Below the pieces are notes generated by a model that ran no database searches, was not told the origin of the DNA, and was given only the letters and a program-made list of their open reading frames with translations. Below, piece by piece: positions 33,853-43,938 of a stretch of DNA of 64,000 nt (positions are counted from its first letter, which is position 1; the number at the start of each line of letters is the position of its first letter). This DNA comes from Escherichia phage vB_EcoM_LNA2: the sequence record MZ311865.1. One strand, written 5' to 3'. The translations under genes and the position numbers were made by a program.

Positions 33853-36800
33853 ATGGCCGACATCAAACGTAAGTTCAGAGCCGAAGACGGTCTGGACGCC
33901 GGTGGCGACAAGATTGTTAACGTAGCATTAGCCGACCGTACAGTAGGTACTGATGGCGTAAACGTTGACTTCCTGGTACAAGAAAACACCGTTCAAGTAT
34001 ATGATTCTACGCGTGGATATAACAAAGGATTTGTTGTTCTTTATGACAACCGTTTATATCAAGCAATAAATGATATCGTGTCTCCTTCCGGGGCATTTAA
34101 CCTTTTACAATGGCGTGCAGTTCGTACCGATGCACAATGGATAACTGTAGCTTCTGGGTCTTATCAACTTTCTTCAGGTGAATCGATTTCGGTTAACACT
34201 GGTGCCGGCAATGATATGGTTTTCACGTTGCCAAATGCGCCGGTTGATGGTGACACTATTGTTTTGGCTGATATTGGTGGAAGAACCGGGGCAGTTAAAG
34301 TACAGATTAACGCGTCTGTGCAGAGTATTTTAAACTTTAGAGGCGAACAAGTTCGTACAGTTTTAATGACGCGTCCGCGTTCACAACTAGTGTTTGTGTT
34401 TAGTAATCGTTTGTGGCAGATGTATATTACCGATTATGGTAAAGAATCAATCACTGTTACACCTGCTACACCATATCAAGCGCAAGCAAACGATTTTATT
34501 GTTCTTCGTTTTACTAGTGCAGCACCAATCAACATTACACTTCCACGTAATGCTAACAATGGTGATATAATCAGCCTAGTTGATTTAGATAAATTAAACC
34601 CACTGTATCATACGATTATTAAAACATTTGATGATACAACGTCTATTGGCGAAGTCGGGACTCATATCGTCGAAGGTAGAACTTCTTCTGACGCGTTTTT
34701 TGTTTTTGATGCTGCAAATAGTTTATGGCGTATATGGGAAGGCGACCAGAAATCACGTCTTCGTATTATCCGTACAGATTCAAATATTCGCCCAAATGAA
34801 GAAGTTCTTATTTTTGGTACAAATAACGCTACAGCAGAAACTATTAACCTTACGCTTCCTACAGGAATTTTGACCGGTGACACTGTTAAAATTTCAATGA
34901 ACTACATGCGTAAAGGCCAAACAGTAAAAATTAAAGCTGCCGAAGGTGATACAATTGCTTCTTCTGTTGCATTACTTCAGTTCCCTAAACGTTCTGAATA
35001 TCCACCTGATGCTCAATGGGTCTCTGTTACTGAACTAGAATTCAATGGCACTACTTCATATGTTCCTGTATTAGAATTAGCGTATATCGAAGACACCGAT
35101 TCTGACACTCATTATTGGGTTGTGCAACAGAATGTCCCTACGGTAGAACGTGTTGATGCTGGAACTGATGCTACACGAGCTCGTTTAGGTGTTATTGCTC
35201 TTGCTACTCAAGCGCAAGCAAATGTTGATTTAGAGAATACTCCAGCTAAAGAAGTGGCTATTACTCCTGAAACTTTGGCAAATCGTACAGCAACTGAAGC
35301 TCGACGTGGTATCGCTAAAATTGCTACAACAGCACAAGTTAACCAGAATTCCACAGCATCATTTGTGGACGATACTATTGTTACGCCTAAAAAACTAAAT
35401 GAGCGTACAGCAACTGAAACTCGTCGTGGTCTTGCTGAAATTGCTACTCAGGCTGAAACCGATGCTGGTCTTGATGACACAACGATTATTACACCTAAGA
35501 AATTGCAGGCACGTCAGGGCTCTGAAACACTATCTGGTATAGTTAAATATGTATCAACTACTTCTGCTACACCTGCCGCGACTCGTGGAGCTGCAGGCAC
35601 TAATGTTTATAATAAAGACACAACCACGTTAACTATTTCTCCTAAAGCCCTTGACCAATATAAAGCAACTTATGCTCAACAAGGTGCAGTAATTTTAGCT
35701 GTTGATAGTGAAGTAATTGCTGGTCAATCACAAGCAGGTTATTCTCACGCTGTAGTAACTCCTGAAACACTACATAAGAAAACTTCTACTGATGGACGTA
35801 TTGGTTTAATTGAAATTGCTACGCAAGCAGAAACTAATGCTGGGACTGATTATACACGTGCAGTAACGCCTAAGACGTTAAATGATAGGAAAGCTACGGA
35901 AGGATTATCCGGCATAGCCGAACTTGCTACGCAAGTTGAATTTGATACTGGAACTGATGATACTCGTATCTCGACTCCACTGAAAATTAAAACTCATTTT
36001 GATTCTTCTGACCGTACCAGTGTTAATTCTGATTCCGGACTTATTGAAGAAGGAACCTTGTGGAACCATTATACTCTTGATATTTCTAAAGCAAATGAAA
36101 CACAACGTGGTACACTTCGCGTAGCGACCCAGGCAGAATCTAATGCAGGAACTTTAGATGATGTTCTTATTACTCCTAAAAAGCTTTTAGGGACTAAGTC
36201 CACTGAAACGTCTGAAGGCGTAATTAAGGTTGCTACTCAGGCTGAAACTGTAACAGGAACTTCTGCTAATACTGCTGTATCTCCTAAGAATTTAAAATGG
36301 ATTGTCCAGTCTGAACCAACATGGGCTGCTACTACGGCGATTCGTGGATTCGTTAAAACTTCATCCGGTTCTATTACATTCGTTGGTAATGATACAGTTG
36401 GTTCAACACAACCTTTAGAATCATATGAAAAAAATAGCTATGCTATATCTCCATATGAATTAAACCGTGTACTTGCTAACTATTTGCCATTGAAAGCTAA
36501 AGCAGTAGATAGTAATTTATTAGATGGTCTAGATTCATCTCAGTTCATTCGTAGGGATATTGCACAGACGGTTAATGGTTCACTAACCTTAACCCAACAA
36601 ACGAATCTGAGTGCCCCTCTTGTATCATCTAGTACTGCTACGTTTGGTGGTTCAGTTTCGGCAAATAGTACATTGACTATTTCTAACACTGGAACGACTT
36701 CTTCTCGATTTACATTTGAGAAAGGTCCTGCTTCTGGTAGTAATGCTGATTCTGCATTGTATGTTCGTGTATGGGGTAATAAGTACAGCGGCGGTTCTGA

Positions 36801-37731
36801 TGTAACTCGTGCAACGATTATAGAATTCTCTGATGCTACCGGCTCTCATTTCTATTCTCAAAGAGATACGTCAAATAATGTGTTGTTCAACATTTCAGGT
36901 ACGATGCAATCAGTCAACGCTAGCGTTCGTGGTGTTCTGAACGTTACAGGTGTCTCAACGTTTAATAGTTCAGTTACAGCCAATGGTGAATTTATTGGTA
37001 AATCACCAAATGCTTTTAGAGCAATAAATGGAAATTACGGATTCTTTATTCGTAACGCTGGTAATGACACCTATTTTATGCTCACTGCAGCCGGCGACCA
37101 GACAGGTGGATTTAATGGATTACGCCCTTTAGCTATTAATAATCAATCCGGTCAGGTTACAATTGGTGAAAGTTTGATTATTGCTAAAGGTGCTACTATA
37201 AATTCAGGTGGTTTGACTGTTAACTCTAGAATTCGTTCTCAGGGTACTAAAGCATCTGATTTATATACCCGTGCGCCAACATCTGATACTGTAGGATTCT
37301 GGTCAATCGATATTAACGATTCAGCCACTTATAACCAGTTCCCAGGTTATTTTAAAATGGTTGAAAAAACTAATGAAGTGACTGGGCTTCCATACTTAGA
37401 ACGTGGCGAAGAAGTTAAATCTCCTGGTACATTGACTCAGTTTGGTAATACACTTGATTCACTTTACCAAGATTGGATTACTTATCCAACAACTCCGGAA
37501 GCACGTACCACTCGCTGGACACGTACATGGCAGAAAACTAAAAATTCTTGGTCAAGTTTTGTTCAAGTATTTGATGGGGGTAATCCTCCTCAACCTTCTG
37601 ATATCGGTGCTTTACCTTCTGATAATGCAACAATCGGAAACTTGACAATAAGGGATTTCTTAAGGATTGGTAATGTCCGCATTATTCCAGACCCTGTGAA
37701 TAAATCTGTTAAATTCGAGTGGATTGAATAA
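33853..37731 (+). CDS. 34: long tail fibre proximal subunit gp34
   Basis: 1292 aa (T4 gp34 1289 aa); internal repeated ..ATE.RRG.A.IATQAE.. motifs. Confidence 0.9.
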   Translation: MADIKRKFRAEDGLDAGGDKIVNVALADRTVGTDGVNVDFLVQENTVQVYDSTRGYNKGFVVLYDNRLYQAINDIVSPSGAFNLLQWRAVRTDAQWITVASGSYQLSSGESISVNTGAGNDMVFTLPNAPVDGDTIVLADIGGRTGAVKVQINASVQSILNFRGEQVRTVLMTRPRSQLVFVFSNRLWQMYITDYGKESITVTPATPYQAQANDFIVLRFTSAAPINITLPRNANNGDIISLVDLDKLNPLYHTIIKTFDDTTSIGEVGTHIVEGRTSSDAFFVFDAANSLWRIWEGDQKSRLRIIRTDSNIRPNEEVLIFGTNNATAETINLTLPTGILTGDTVKISMNYMRKGQTVKIKAAEGDTIASSVALLQFPKRSEYPPDAQWVSVTELEFNGTTSYVPVLELAYIEDTDSDTHYWVVQQNVPTVERVDAGTDATRARLGVIALATQAQANVDLENTPAKEVAITPETLANRTATEARRGIAKIATTAQVNQNSTASFVDDTIVTPKKLNERTATETRRGLAEIATQAETDAGLDDTTIITPKKLQARQGSETLSGIVKYVSTTSATPAATRGAAGTNVYNKDTTTLTISPKALDQYKATYAQQGAVILAVDSEVIAGQSQAGYSHAVVTPETLHKKTSTDGRIGLIEIATQAETNAGTDYTRAVTPKTLNDRKATEGLSGIAELATQVEFDTGTDDTRISTPLKIKTHFDSSDRTSVNSDSGLIEEGTLWNHYTLDISKANETQRGTLRVATQAESNAGTLDDVLITPKKLLGTKSTETSEGVIKVATQAETVTGTSANTAVSPKNLKWIVQSEPTWAATTAIRGFVKTSSGSITFVGNDTVGSTQPLESYEKNSYAISPYELNRVLANYLPLKAKAVDSNLLDGLDSSQFIRRDIAQTVNGSLTLTQQTNLSAPLVSSSTATFGGSVSANSTLTISNTGTTSSRFTFEKGPASGSNADSALYVRVWGNKYSGGSDVTRATIIEFSDATGSHFYSQRDTSNNVLFNISGTMQSVNASVRGVLNVTGVSTFNSSVTANGEFIGKSPNAFRAINGNYGFFIRNAGNDTYFMLTAAGDQTGGFNGLRPLAINNQSGQVTIGESLIIAKGATINSGGLTVNSRIRSQGTKASDLYTRAPTSDTVGFWSIDINDSATYNQFPGYFKMVEKTNEVTGLPYLERGEEVKSPGTLTQFGNTLDSLYQDWITYPTTPEARTTRWTRTWQKTKNSWSSFVQVFDGGNPPQPSDIGALPSDNATIGNLTIRDFLRIGNVRIIPDPVNKSVKFEWIE

Positions 37732-39603: not shown

Positions 39604-42600
39604 ATGGCTACATTAAAACAGATACAATTTAAAAGAAGCAAAGTAGCAGGAGTTAATCCTACTGCAGCACAATTAGCCGAAGGCGAATTAGCGATAAACT
39701 TAAAAGATCGAACTCTTTTTACTAAAGATGACCTCGGTAATATTATTAGCCTAGGCTTTGCTAAGGGCGGGGATATTAACGGTAATGTAACTCAAAATGG
39801 AGATTATTTACAGAACGGTACATATAATCTCAATGGAAACCAGTTTGTTTATGCAGGAAAATATATTGAATTTTTACCTAAAACTGCAGGCAATGGTGCT
39901 TGGGCTAACCAACATCTGAATAAAGCTCCTATCTTTACAGATTTGAGTTCAACTACTTCTGTTTCAGAATATCATCCGCTGATTAAACAACGCTATAAAG
40001 ATGGAACTTTTTCTGTTGGTACGTTAGTAAACGAAGGAAGTTTTAAAATTCATTTTATGAATGAATCTGGTGATTCGAAATATTGGACGTTTCGCCGTGA
40101 CGGTGGATTTACTGTTGATGGTGGAGGTTTAGCAGTATCAGGAGGTAGTATAACTACATCTGGAAATATTGCAGCTCTCGGAAATATTACTTCGCCTCAG
40201 ATTAATACTAAAAATATTATTTTAGACACAAAAGCATTTGGACAATACGATTCGCAATCATTAGTTCAATATGTTTATCCTGGAACAGGCGAAGAAAATG
40301 GTGTAAACTATCTTCGTAAAGTTCGCGCTAAATCAGGCGGAACTATTTACCACGAAATCGCTTCAGCTCAAACCGGTAAGAATGATGAAATTTCTTGGTG
40401 GACCGGAAATACACTTACTACTAAATTAATGGGCCTTCGTAATGATGGCGCAATGGTATTACGTCGTTCGCTTGCTATTGGCACAATTACCACTGACGAA
40501 AATACTAATAACTATGGCTCTCCTACTCCAATGGGAGAAAGATATATTGCTTTGGGCGATGCTGCCACTGGTTTAAAATACATTAAGCAGGGTGTTTATG
40601 ATTTAGTAGGTAATTGGAATTCTGTTGCTTCTATTACTCCAGATAGTTTCCGTAGTACTCGTAAAGGTATATTTGGCCGTTCCGAGGACCAAGGTGGAAC
40701 ATGGATAATGCCGGGAACCAATGCTGCTCTCTTGTCTGTTCAAACACAAGCTGATAATAACAATGCTGGAGACGGACAAACTCATATCGGGTACAACGCT
40801 GGCGGTAAAATGAACCACTATTTCCGCGGTACTGGTCAGATGAATATCAATACCCAACAAGGTATGAAAATTAACCCGGGTATTTTGAAACTGGTAACTG
40901 GCGGTGAAAGTATTAGCTTTAATGCCGCAACTGGAAGTATTAATTCTACATTAGCTTTTCGTCTTAATAAAGGCATAATTATTGATGGACCTGATAATCA
41001 GGGATTCCAGTTTAACGCCCCGACGGCTGCAGATGGTACTAGAAGTATATACTGGAACAGTGGTACTCGCGCAGGTCAAAACAAAATCCCTGTTACAGTT
41101 AAAGTGTGGGGTAATTCATTTAACGCATCTGGCGATCGTTCTCGTGAAACGGTTTTTGAAGTAGCTGATGGGCAAGGTTACCATTTTTATTCTCAACGCG
41201 TAGCTCCTGCTCCTGGTTCTACCGTCGGACCTATTCAATTTCGAGTTAATGGTGGTTTATTAACTTCAGGTAGTATTGTTACTTCTGGTTCTATTACAAC
41301 TGAATCTTCTTTAAGTGTTAATAATGGCATGTCAGTAAACGGACAAGCTAAATTCGGTGGAACAGCTGATGCATTAAGAATTTGGAATGCTGAATACGGC
41401 GCAATTTTCCGTCGTTCAGAAGCATCATTATATATTATCCCGACTCCTAAAGATGCTGGAGAATCAGGCGGTATAAGTAATCTTAGACCATTGATAATAG
41501 AACTGAACACTGGCACAGTTAAAATGTCGCATGATGTTCATTTAGGAGATTCTGGATCTGGTACAGGATTATTACAAGTAAGTAATAGTCTTAAAACTAT
41601 TAAAATGATATGTCCAGTAACTATTACTGAACGTAATGCAGCGCTTACTCTAGATTCTCCTTCATCTTCTTCTGCTAATTATTTACAGGGTTCTAAAGCT
41701 GGAACTAGAACGTGGTATGTTGGTCTTGGTGGCTCTGGAAATGATTTATCACTTTATAGTCAATCTTATGGACACGGTCTTGTTATAAGCGATAATTTCG
41801 TGGCAATCAGTAAACCTCTTAAAGTTGGAAATGCTCAATTCGGTACTGATGGTAACATTACTGGTGGTTCTGGTAATTTTGCTAACTTGAATACCACAAT
41901 AAATAACCTTAAGACGGATATTGTGTCGAGTTACCCAATTGGTGCTCCGATTCCTTGGCCTACTGATACACCTCCTGAAGGTTATGCCATAATGGAAGGT
42001 CAAACATTTGATGCTGGCTTGTATCCTAAGTTAGCTGCGGTGTATCCTTCCGGCACTCTGCCTGATATGCGTGGTCAAACTATCAAGGGTAAACCATCTG
42101 GGCGTGCTGTATTAAGTACAGAAGCGGACGGCGTTAAGTCACATAGCCATAGTGCAAGTGCATCAAGCACAGATTTGGGTACTAAAACTACGTCAAGCTT
42201 TGATTATGGTACTAAGACGACAAGTAGCTTCGACTATGGTACTAAGACCAGTAATACCACTGGTAACCATAACCATACCGTGAGTGGTAATACTGGTTCC
42301 GCTGGTGCGCACCAACACGCGCGTTCAGGTCCTCAGGTACAAGGCGGCATACCCACTAGCGTATTCTATGATGGATACAATAGTGCTGGTCCAAACGGCA
42401 ACGCTAAATTCACTGCAACCGTGAGCGGTGCTACTGCATCGTCGAATATGGCCAAAACTTCTTCAGACGGCGCCCACACCCATAGTTGGTCAGGAACTAC
42501 TAGCGCTACTGGTAACCATGCTCATACTGTGGGTATTGGTGCTCATACCCATTCGGTAGGTATTGGTGCCCACTCTCATTCGGTAGCGATTGGTTCTCAT

Positions 42601-42687
42601 GGCCATACTATCACTGTAAATAGTACAGGTAATACAGAAAACACGGTTAAAAACGTTGCTTTTAACTATATCGTTCGTTTAGCATAA
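39604..42687 (+). CDS. 37: long tail fibre distal subunit gp37 (receptor-binding)
   Basis: 1027 aa (T4 gp37 1026 aa); C-terminal His-box repeats (GNHNH, GAHTHS, GAHSHS, GSHGH) typical of the T4-type fibre tip. Confidence 0.9.
42171..42260 (+). repeat. 30-nt tandem repeat x3 inside gene 37 ([10 protein letters not shown] / [10 protein letters not shown] / [10 protein letters not shown])
   Basis: Three consecutive imperfect 30-nt units read directly in the sequence. Confidence 0.7.
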
Positions 42688-42717
42688 GGAGAAGGGACTT
42701 CGGTCCCTTTTTATAAC
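42686..42717 (+). promoter_or_regulatory. gene 38 split ribosome-binding site with intervening UUCG hairpin
   Basis: SD AAGGAG at 42686-42691, hairpin GGGAC-ttcg-GTCCC, then ATG at 42718; the stem-loop shortens the effective SD-AUG spacing. Confidence 0.6.
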
Positions 42718-43278: not shown

Positions 43279-43938
43279 ATGGCAACACCAAAAGTGTCAT
43301 TTTCGCCTAGTGATATTCTATTTGGGTTGCTAGATCGTATTTTCAAAGATAACGCTACTGGAAAGGTTTTAATGTCCCGAGTAGCGGTAATTATTCTTTT
43401 GTTCCTAATGGCACTAATATGGTACAAAGGAAGTATTTTGCTGGATTATTATGTAAGAGCTAAGTATGATACTTATACTGAAATAATCCAAAAAGAACGA
43501 GCTTTACGTTTTGAATCTGCGGCTCTAGAACAACTGCAAATAGTTCATATCTCATCTGGTGCAGATTTTAGTGCTGTGTATTCTTTCAGACCTAAAAACT
43601 TAAATTATTTTGTCGACCTTATAGCTTATGAAGGCAAACTACCTAGCACAATTTCTGAAAAGTCCCTTGGTGGATTCCCGGTGGATAAAACGGCCAATGA
43701 ATATATAATTCATTTAAGTGGCCGTCATTTCTCGTCTAAATCAGAATTTGCATTTTTGCCTACAAAATCTAAGACTGCCGAACTTTCTTATATGTATAGT
43801 TGTCCATACTTTAATTTGGATAACATCTATGCTGGAACTGTGACGATGTATTGGTATAAGGGGAATAATATACTTGAGGAAGATCGCTTAGCGGCTATAT
43901 GCAACCAAGCGGTCCGAATACTAGGAAGGGCTAAATAA
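43279..43938 (+). CDS. t: holin T
   Basis: 219 aa (T4 T 218 aa); single N-terminal TM segment; C-terminal conserved block ...SCPYFNLDNIYAGT.TMYWY... Confidence 0.9.
   Translation: MATPKVSFSPSDILFGLLDRIFKDNATGKVLMSRVAVIILLFLMALIWYKGSILLDYYVRAKYDTYTEIIQKERALRFESAALEQLQIVHISSGADFSAVYSFRPKNLNYFVDLIAYEGKLPSTISEKSLGGFPVDKTANEYIIHLSGRHFSSKSEFAFLPTKSKTAELSYMYSCPYFNLDNIYAGTVTMYWYKGNNILEEDRLAAICNQAVRILGRAK

Follow-up and report, generated by a model that had tools for sequence, protein, structure and literature searches.

Gene 37 and its neighbourhood

The window is a 64,000-nucleotide stretch of the genome of Escherichia phage vB_EcoM_LNA2 (MZ311865.1), and 24 kb of it are about 96% identical to members of the Tevenvirinae such as JS09 and EP02SG. 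The tail fibre genes are arranged in the order g34-g35-g36-g37-g38-t, which is the same as in T4 (Table 1). Two tandem repeat arrays are located within the last 520 bases of the gene 37 ORF. The preliminary description of this DNA had assigned the ORF to gp37, and both homology and gene order identified its product as a T4-type gp37, 59% identical to T4 gp37 over the full length. A Pfam search detected the gp37_trimer and Collar families in the protein. No match to PF03335 (Phage_fiber) was obtained for the window gp37 at E <= 0.01; a precomputed match to this family is present in many homologues.

Gene 38 corresponds in position and length to T4 gp38, annotated as ‘tail fiber assembly’. A downstream gp38 of the Caudo_TAP type is expected with gp37 tips that are themselves the adhesin. 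A tip of the T2/T6 type, in which gp37 is capped by a gp38 adhesin of about 260 amino acids with glycine-rich motifs, was also considered and was rejected because the downstream ORF encodes a Caudo_TAP protein of 183 amino acids. The minus strand beneath the repeats contains no ORF of at least 80 amino acids. A hairpin after gene 37 was folded by RNAfold, and the terminator scan made no call.

The solved tip of T4 gp37 (2XGF, residues 785-1026) was matched with an E value of 1.7e-87 in a phmmer search against all PDB chains, gp37 residues 750-1027 being aligned onto chain residues 2-242. The first HxH motif is invariant in an alignment of 30 homologues. In T4, residues 1010-1026 of the C-terminal strand belong to the D10 domain (PMC6957217).

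Table 1. Features of the gene 37 region; positions are those of the window.
Feature	Position	Strand	Basis or remark
g34	33853-37731		ORF call and gene order
Gene 37, long tail fibre distal subunit, 1027 aa	39604..42687	+	3084-base ORF; T4-type (adhesin within gp37 itself)
Collar (knob, D10) domain core, gp37 residues 780-827	41941..42084	+	PF07484, E 8.5e-11; aligns to the 2XGF collar
HxH motif 1, H847-S-H849, predicted collar-proximal metal site, outgoing strand	42142..42150	+	Aligns with T4 H883/H885
Outgoing array, three 10-residue His-free units	42172..42261	+	TRF score 80; 10-residue insertion relative to T4 (two units)
Outgoing His boxes 2 and 3, 14 residues apart	42268..42318	+	GNHNH (residues 887-891) and GAHQH (901-905); align with T4 H915/917 and H929/931
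Head (tip) subdomain, residues 906-957, variable, TuIb-like	42319..42474	+	Segment between HxH3 and HxH4
Returning His boxes 4 and 5, 14 residues apart, mirroring the outgoing pair	42475..42531	+	GAHTH (residues 956-960) and GNHAH (970-974)
Returning array, three 9-residue His-box units, HxH motifs 6-8	42532..42612	+	TRF score 89; 9-residue insertion relative to T4 (two units)
C-terminal strand returning into the collar	42613..42684	+	Nearly invariant in the family; corresponds to T4 residues 1003-1026
Gene 38, T4-type tail fibre assembly chaperone, 183 aa	42718..43269	+	Pfam PF02413, Caudo_TAP
t holin	43279-43938		Pfam Phage_holin_T

Repeats and His boxes of the fibre tip

Tandem Repeats Finder (TRF) detected a 30-nt period (2.3 copies, 42178-42245, 78% matches, score 80) and a 27-nt period (2.6 copies, 42532-42600, 78% matches, score 89). 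The 30-nt unit is present three times, as had been described, and the coordinates given earlier (42171-42260) were shifted by one base relative to the reading frame, in which the units span 42172-42201, 42202-42231 and 42232-42261. The threefold 27-nt repeat of the preliminary description was likewise recovered, in frame, with units at 42532-42558 (GIGAHTHSV), 42559-42585 (GIGAHSHSV) and 42586-42612 (AIGSHGHTI), directly preceded by a more diverged copy, ATGNHAHTV, at 42505-42531. The longer run of GxHxH boxes reported there consists of eight HxH motifs, at gp37 residues 847, 889, 903, 958, 972, 981, 990 and 999, all of them GxHxH except the first, which is KSHSH.

Units 1 and 2 of the 30-nt array are alike at nine of ten residues but at only 21 of 30 nucleotides, indicating that the duplication is old and has been maintained by selection at the protein level. 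Unit 3 agrees with the other two at five to six of ten residues, and the best two copies of the 27-nt unit share 23 of 27 nucleotides. Overall, DNA identity between the copies is 57-85%, with high synonymous divergence, and adjoining copies have exact words of at most 14 and 11 nt in common. Divergence is also seen in the third copy of each array, and the region is of low complexity. Judged from this divergence, the repeat copies are not recent.

Comparison with the T4 gp37 tip

All seven HxH motifs of T4 are conserved in the window gp37, which has one more, and the motifs are invariant in the 30 homologues. Because they aligned with the iron-coordinating HxH motifs of 2XGF, the earlier assignment of the His boxes to the metal-coordinating needle of T4 is supported. 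Relative to the T4 stem, that of the window gp37 has one extra 10-residue unit and one extra 9-residue unit (GIGAHxHSV) and no other difference, as seen both in the phmmer alignment with 2XGF and when full-length T4 gp37 was aligned by MAFFT. A difference in copy number from T4, raised in the preliminary description as a point for alignment, was thereby found, with one extra unit in each array. The spacing between HxH1 and HxH2 is 42 residues here and 32 in T4, and the stem halves comprise 60 and 59 residues here compared with 50 and 50. In the MAFFT alignment the head is 18 residues longer than that of T4. By analogy with T4, whose receptor-contact residues lie within 932-959 (PMC6957217), the head is presumed to contact the receptor. 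An AlphaFold2 monomer model of residues 750-1027, part of an obligate interwoven trimer, was generated from the 30-sequence alignment and had a mean pLDDT of 49 and a pTM of 0.19.

In the T4 tip, the chain goes from the knob to the tip and then turns back (PMC9603124). [quoted passage not shown] Contacts have been described between G921 and F970 and between G964 and H929 (PMC6957217). When the T4 sequence is numbered, both contacts give residue sums of about 1892, which indicates an antiparallel register. On this linear register, rather than on coordinates, the His-free units of T4 (residues 893-912) would be level with the returning His boxes 989/991 and 998/1000.

Copy number of the two arrays

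Spacings between HxH motifs were collected from protein-database tips, 80 IMG/VR loci and 150 representatives at 50% identity, and from GenBank phages, a usable tip being obtained for twelve of the thirteen examined; T4 and the window were included. Outgoing units were counted by length, as a regular-expression count was too strict for diverged sequences and produced false mismatches. In the resulting 216 distinct complete tips, the spacing from HxH1 to HxH2 equalled 12+10n residues and was accompanied by n terminal spacings of exactly 9. Outgoing and returning copy numbers were the same in 214 of the 216 (n = 1 in one tip, n = 2 in 95, n = 3 in 110, n = 4 in seven and n = 5 in one). When returning counts were shuffled among sequences 10,000 times, at most 127 pairs were equal, compared with 214 of 215 observed. 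Symmetry extends to the 14-residue His modules beside the head (0/0, 1/1 or 2/2, and 12/12 in a single tip). The table of 216 tips contains eight architectures, seven of which are symmetric. The same rule holds for tips excluded by the filters, one of them 6/6, and for another 32 proteins.

Of the two apparent exceptions, one (P0217) merely lacks the distal outgoing HxH and is 2/2 when units are counted. The sole real exception (L002; IMGVR_UViG_3300030021_000020), with three outgoing and two returning units, is an intact T4-like gene on a 10.5-kb metagenomic contig. No further tip with three outgoing and two returning units was found with this sequence as the query, its nearest relatives being 81% identical. 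Unless it is an assembly artefact, this tip may show that a mismatch can be tolerated.

Two pairs of tips carry the same head on stems of different n. BYEP01 (n = 2) and AV122 (n = 3) are distinguished by a clean indel in each array, of 30 nt in the outgoing and 27 nt in the returning one, and 25-30 of 30 nucleotides are identical in most 30-nt windows along the tip; for PhiZZ23 (n = 2) and P0006 (n = 3) the same was seen in the protein sequences. About 31 changes of n were obtained by Fitch parsimony when a neighbour-joining tree was built from the conserved flanks, a tree of only 72 columns. This count is taken to indicate only that n has changed several times, and eight distinct symmetric architectures appear to be the firm lower bound. 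Part of the covariation could come from the inheritance of whole tips as cassettes, rather than from selection. No statement of a one-to-one coupling of the arrays was found in the literature searched, which excluded Bartual 2010 and Tetart 1996.

Distribution among related phages

The HxH spacing of the window tip (42, 14, 55, 14, 9, 9, 9) recurs unchanged in TuIb, R5505 and mogra. In 114 phage records, with identities of about 90-94%, the match spans at least 80% of the 791-nt tip region. Among the 40 close relatives listed out of these 114, 39 are colinear with the window without a net length change and none shows a copy-number polymorphism; the one listed relative with a length change, F31, has an extra 15 nt in the head. 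With the same spacing found in TuIb and R5505 and this colinearity, the strain-specific expansion envisaged in the preliminary description is not borne out. The best phage records are about 94% identical over the tip, with none higher in the phage collection, and the best protein match (P0001) has 96% identity. Only 24 records contained a T4-type tip at a coverage of at least 80% of its length, so that T4 represents the minority form. TuIb is listed as an OmpC/LamB phage, and a family joining T4, TuIa, TuIb, phiD1 and lambda Stf has already been described (PMC9659904).

Discussion

We consider it very likely that the two arrays encode the two strands that run antiparallel in the part of the needle stem (D11) nearest the collar of a T4-type gp37 tip, and that they are fixed and do not act as a slippage switch. 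The equality of their copy numbers points to opposite strands of one hairpin stem; if the arrays are such strands, their copy numbers must match. From homology, motif positions, copy numbers and covariation, all computed here, we infer a trimer geometry in which each chain would exit the collar, go outward via the His-free 10-residue units (D-x-G-T-K-T-T-S-S-F), build the head and come back via the 9-residue G-x-G-x-H-x-H-x-V units. Three chains would intertwine, with one axial metal ion (iron in T4) held by every HxH triplet. A rung would be assembled from three chains, each contributing one outgoing unit and one returning His box, and every such rung would bring an octahedral metal site and make the stem longer. 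That the two arrays are apposed is suggested by the linear register together with the two published T4 contacts. The window tip would have three rungs and eight HxH motifs, and that of T4 two rungs and seven. The extra rung would provide one more metal site, presumably occupied, and a stem about ten residues longer per strand than in T4, together with any functional consequence that this length may have. As the strands are kept in register, the number of rungs would change solely through matched indels in both arrays.

The preliminary description had read the arrays as prone to slippage or recombination and able to alter fibre length and host range. In its full form this reading would make them contingency-type, hypervariable repeats whose units slip or recombine often, with strains differing in fibre length and host range as a result. 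In its favour, T4 (2+2) and the window phage (3+3) do not have the same copy number, which spans 1 to 6 over the wider family, and the exact words shared by adjoining copies could serve such a process. Host-range mutants of T4 reportedly arise via duplications in the C-terminal region of gene 37; these laboratory-selected duplications are said to be bounded by the conserved His-box motifs, to include the specificity region and to be linked to host range. Such events in this region, reported by Tetart et al. (1996), also speak for this reading. However, slippage of this kind calls for near-identical units, and the copies have diverged to 57-85% identity in DNA with high synonymous divergence. 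Length is unchanged in all but one of the listed relatives at 90-94% identity, and the change in F31 is in the head. The repeats are located in the stem, away from the receptor-contacting head, and a change in a single array was seen once in 216 tips. Slippage in one array would mismatch the stem if the arrays pair as opposite strands. Because copy numbers are equal in 214 of 216 tips, such slippage looks counter-selected and not a source of useful variation. In view of the diverged copies, the lack of copy-number polymorphism among the listed relatives and the equality of the arrays, we regard contingency-type variation as very improbable.

We find it slightly more improbable still that the His-box and DxGTK units are mainly short homology patches for swapping heads between phages and prophages, kept for the sake of evolvability. 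This reading follows the ‘conserved motif’ shuffling of Tetart and Krisch and could be compatible with a structural role. The same heads on n = 2 and n = 3 stems (BYEP01/AV122 and PhiZZ23/P0006) agree with it, as do differing heads on near-identical stems in T4-like phages and lambda-type prophage fibres, and over 27 nt of DNA there is 81% identity between the His boxes on either side of the head, outgoing (42259-42285) and returning (42508-42534). Against it, recombinants from one crossover within the head of n = 2 and n = 3 parents would have mismatched stems, which are almost never seen, and metal coordination and strand packing fully explain the conservation of the motifs, alanine at H929 or H931 being lethal in T4 (PMC6957217). 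A compositional accident of a Gly/Ser/Thr/His-rich fibre, with no defined unit structure, would suit the low complexity of the region and its diverged third copies. It is nevertheless extremely improbable, as none of 300 codon shuffles of gene 37 reached a TRF score of 80 (the highest was 67), and the unit boundaries, with spacings of exactly 10 and 9 residues, are kept across a set of over 200 homologues that extends to identities as low as about 55%.

Under the paired-strand stem that we favour, the flagged repeats belong to the normal architecture of a common type of tail-fibre tip and are not a hypervariable locus; within the TuIb/phiD1/JS09-type tip, they appear to be a fixed, old and structurally constrained part. 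More generally, we would give an even chance to the proposal that the stem of the T4 gp37/lambda Stf family is a quantised ladder of one to six rungs, strand-matched in all but one of more than 216 sequences and with the 14-residue modules beside the head matched as well, in which needle length and metal load would be tunable and would change only by paired indels about 100 codons apart. For the engineering of T4- or lambda-type tips, the corresponding design rule is to add or remove stem units in pairs and to place crossovers symmetrically about the head. The predicted metal load is eight sites per fibre here compared with seven in T4, or 48 compared with 42 per virion (six fibres), which is relevant to the idea of iron sequestration by phage tail fibres. 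Earlier work had established the His boxes, the iron needle and the hairpin topology. The flagged feature is itself known and widespread; what the paired-rung rule adds to it is modest and possibly not new.

Comparison with known systems

The T4 gp37 tip (2XGF; Bartual et al. 2010) resembles the window tip in its collar, its six-stranded needle with axial HxH sites, its head, the C-terminal strand that goes back to the collar and the gp38 chaperone gene downstream. It differs in having seven HxH motifs instead of eight and two units per array instead of three, and the longer head of the window tip is also different in sequence. The T4 duplications of Tetart et al. (1996) are reportedly tandem and affect the same C-terminal region of gene 37, whereas the window arrays are old, fixed, strand-matched and located in the stem.

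Close counterparts are found in the TuIb/phiD1/JS09/R5505/mogra group of the Tevenvirinae, which differ from the window tip by point substitutions only. TuIb (X55191; Montag et al. 1990) shares the HxH spacing, and its head is identical at 39 of 52 residues (75%); phiD1 and JS09 are 93.7-94.3% identical in nucleotides over the 791-nt region, without a net length change. In the GenBank record of phage mogra, the stretch of the 27-nt array is already annotated as a repeat_region.

The lambda-type Stf tips of enterobacterial prophages have a homologous collar, needle and head built from the same two module types, and they obey the same copy-number rule. They are borne on unrelated shafts in siphovirus and myovirus prophages, their heads differ, and many have n = 2 or lack the 14-residue modules. 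The long and short fibre tips of the Felixounavirus Bas63 are also gp37-like, with six or seven HxH motifs, and the number of these motifs has been suggested to scale with needle length (PMC12609058). In that study the HxH motifs were counted alone, and a one-to-one coupling of outgoing His-free units to returning His boxes was left unstated.

Direct repeat around the specificity region and head expansion

The outgoing and returning His boxes on either side of the head of gp37 (Table) share 81% DNA identity over 27 nt at a separation of 249 nt, and form a direct repeat on both sides of the specificity region. Duplication, deletion or exchange of this region could occur through the flanking repeat.

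Features in and downstream of gene 37
Feature	Window coordinates	Description
gp37 shaft	39604-41850	Residues 1-749
Outgoing His box	42259-42285	TGNHNHTVS; one side of head
Returning His box	42508-42534	TGNHAHTVG; other side of head
Hairpin	42689-42712	Gap between genes 37 and 38; GGGAC-TTCG-GTCCC followed by TTTTT

The gp37 head of Escherichia phage vB_Eco_F31 (OP870147.1; locus L093) contains a tandem duplication of five residues, reading IQGGVPQGGVPTS where the window, taken as the reference, has QVQGGIPTS. This duplication accounts for the additional 15 nt in F31 and is a genuine strain-specific repeat expansion, located in the receptor-contacting part of the protein and not in the stem. 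The 27-nt array of the returning strand has been annotated before. In the record of Escherichia phage mogra (MN850579.1), the submitters marked a 69-nt repeat_region (L082:1833-1901), which is the exact counterpart of the array detected by TRF at 42532-42600 in the window, and the phage teqskov record carries a similar feature.

Unequal and composite tips

Among more than 216 tips, unequal arrays were found only in the homologous locus L002 (IMGVR_UViG_3300030021_000020, 1501-2307), where three outgoing units accompany two returning His-box spacings (spacings between successive HxH motifs: [42,14,55,14,9,9]). The reading frame of this gene 37 homologue is kept, and downstream of it lie two intact ORFs, one gp38-like (183 aa) and one holin-like (219 aa). 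The 3/2 state is to be explained by a mismatch that is tolerated, by recombination or by faulty assembly. Two tips, the first of them partial, are present in a prophage fibre protein of 938 aa from the protein database (P0122; [32,14,324,32,14,51,14,9,9]). Its first tip has a collar, outgoing units and a pair of His boxes and is cut short within the head; beyond it come another shaft and a second tip, which is complete. This protein looks like the product of fusion or recombination between two fibre genes.

Intergenic hairpin

The hairpin downstream of gene 37 has a fold energy of -14.3 kcal/mol (RNAfold) and looks like an intrinsic terminator. A consensus terminator scan made no call at this hairpin; the phage NBG1 record has a terminator annotated beneath the region matched by the window.

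Comparison with T4 gp37

Whole-protein identity between the window's gp37 and T4 gp37 is 59%, with numerous indels in the shaft. Although their total lengths are nearly equal (1027 aa in the window and 1026 in T4), the window protein has a shaft about 35 residues shorter and a tip about 36 residues longer than those of T4.
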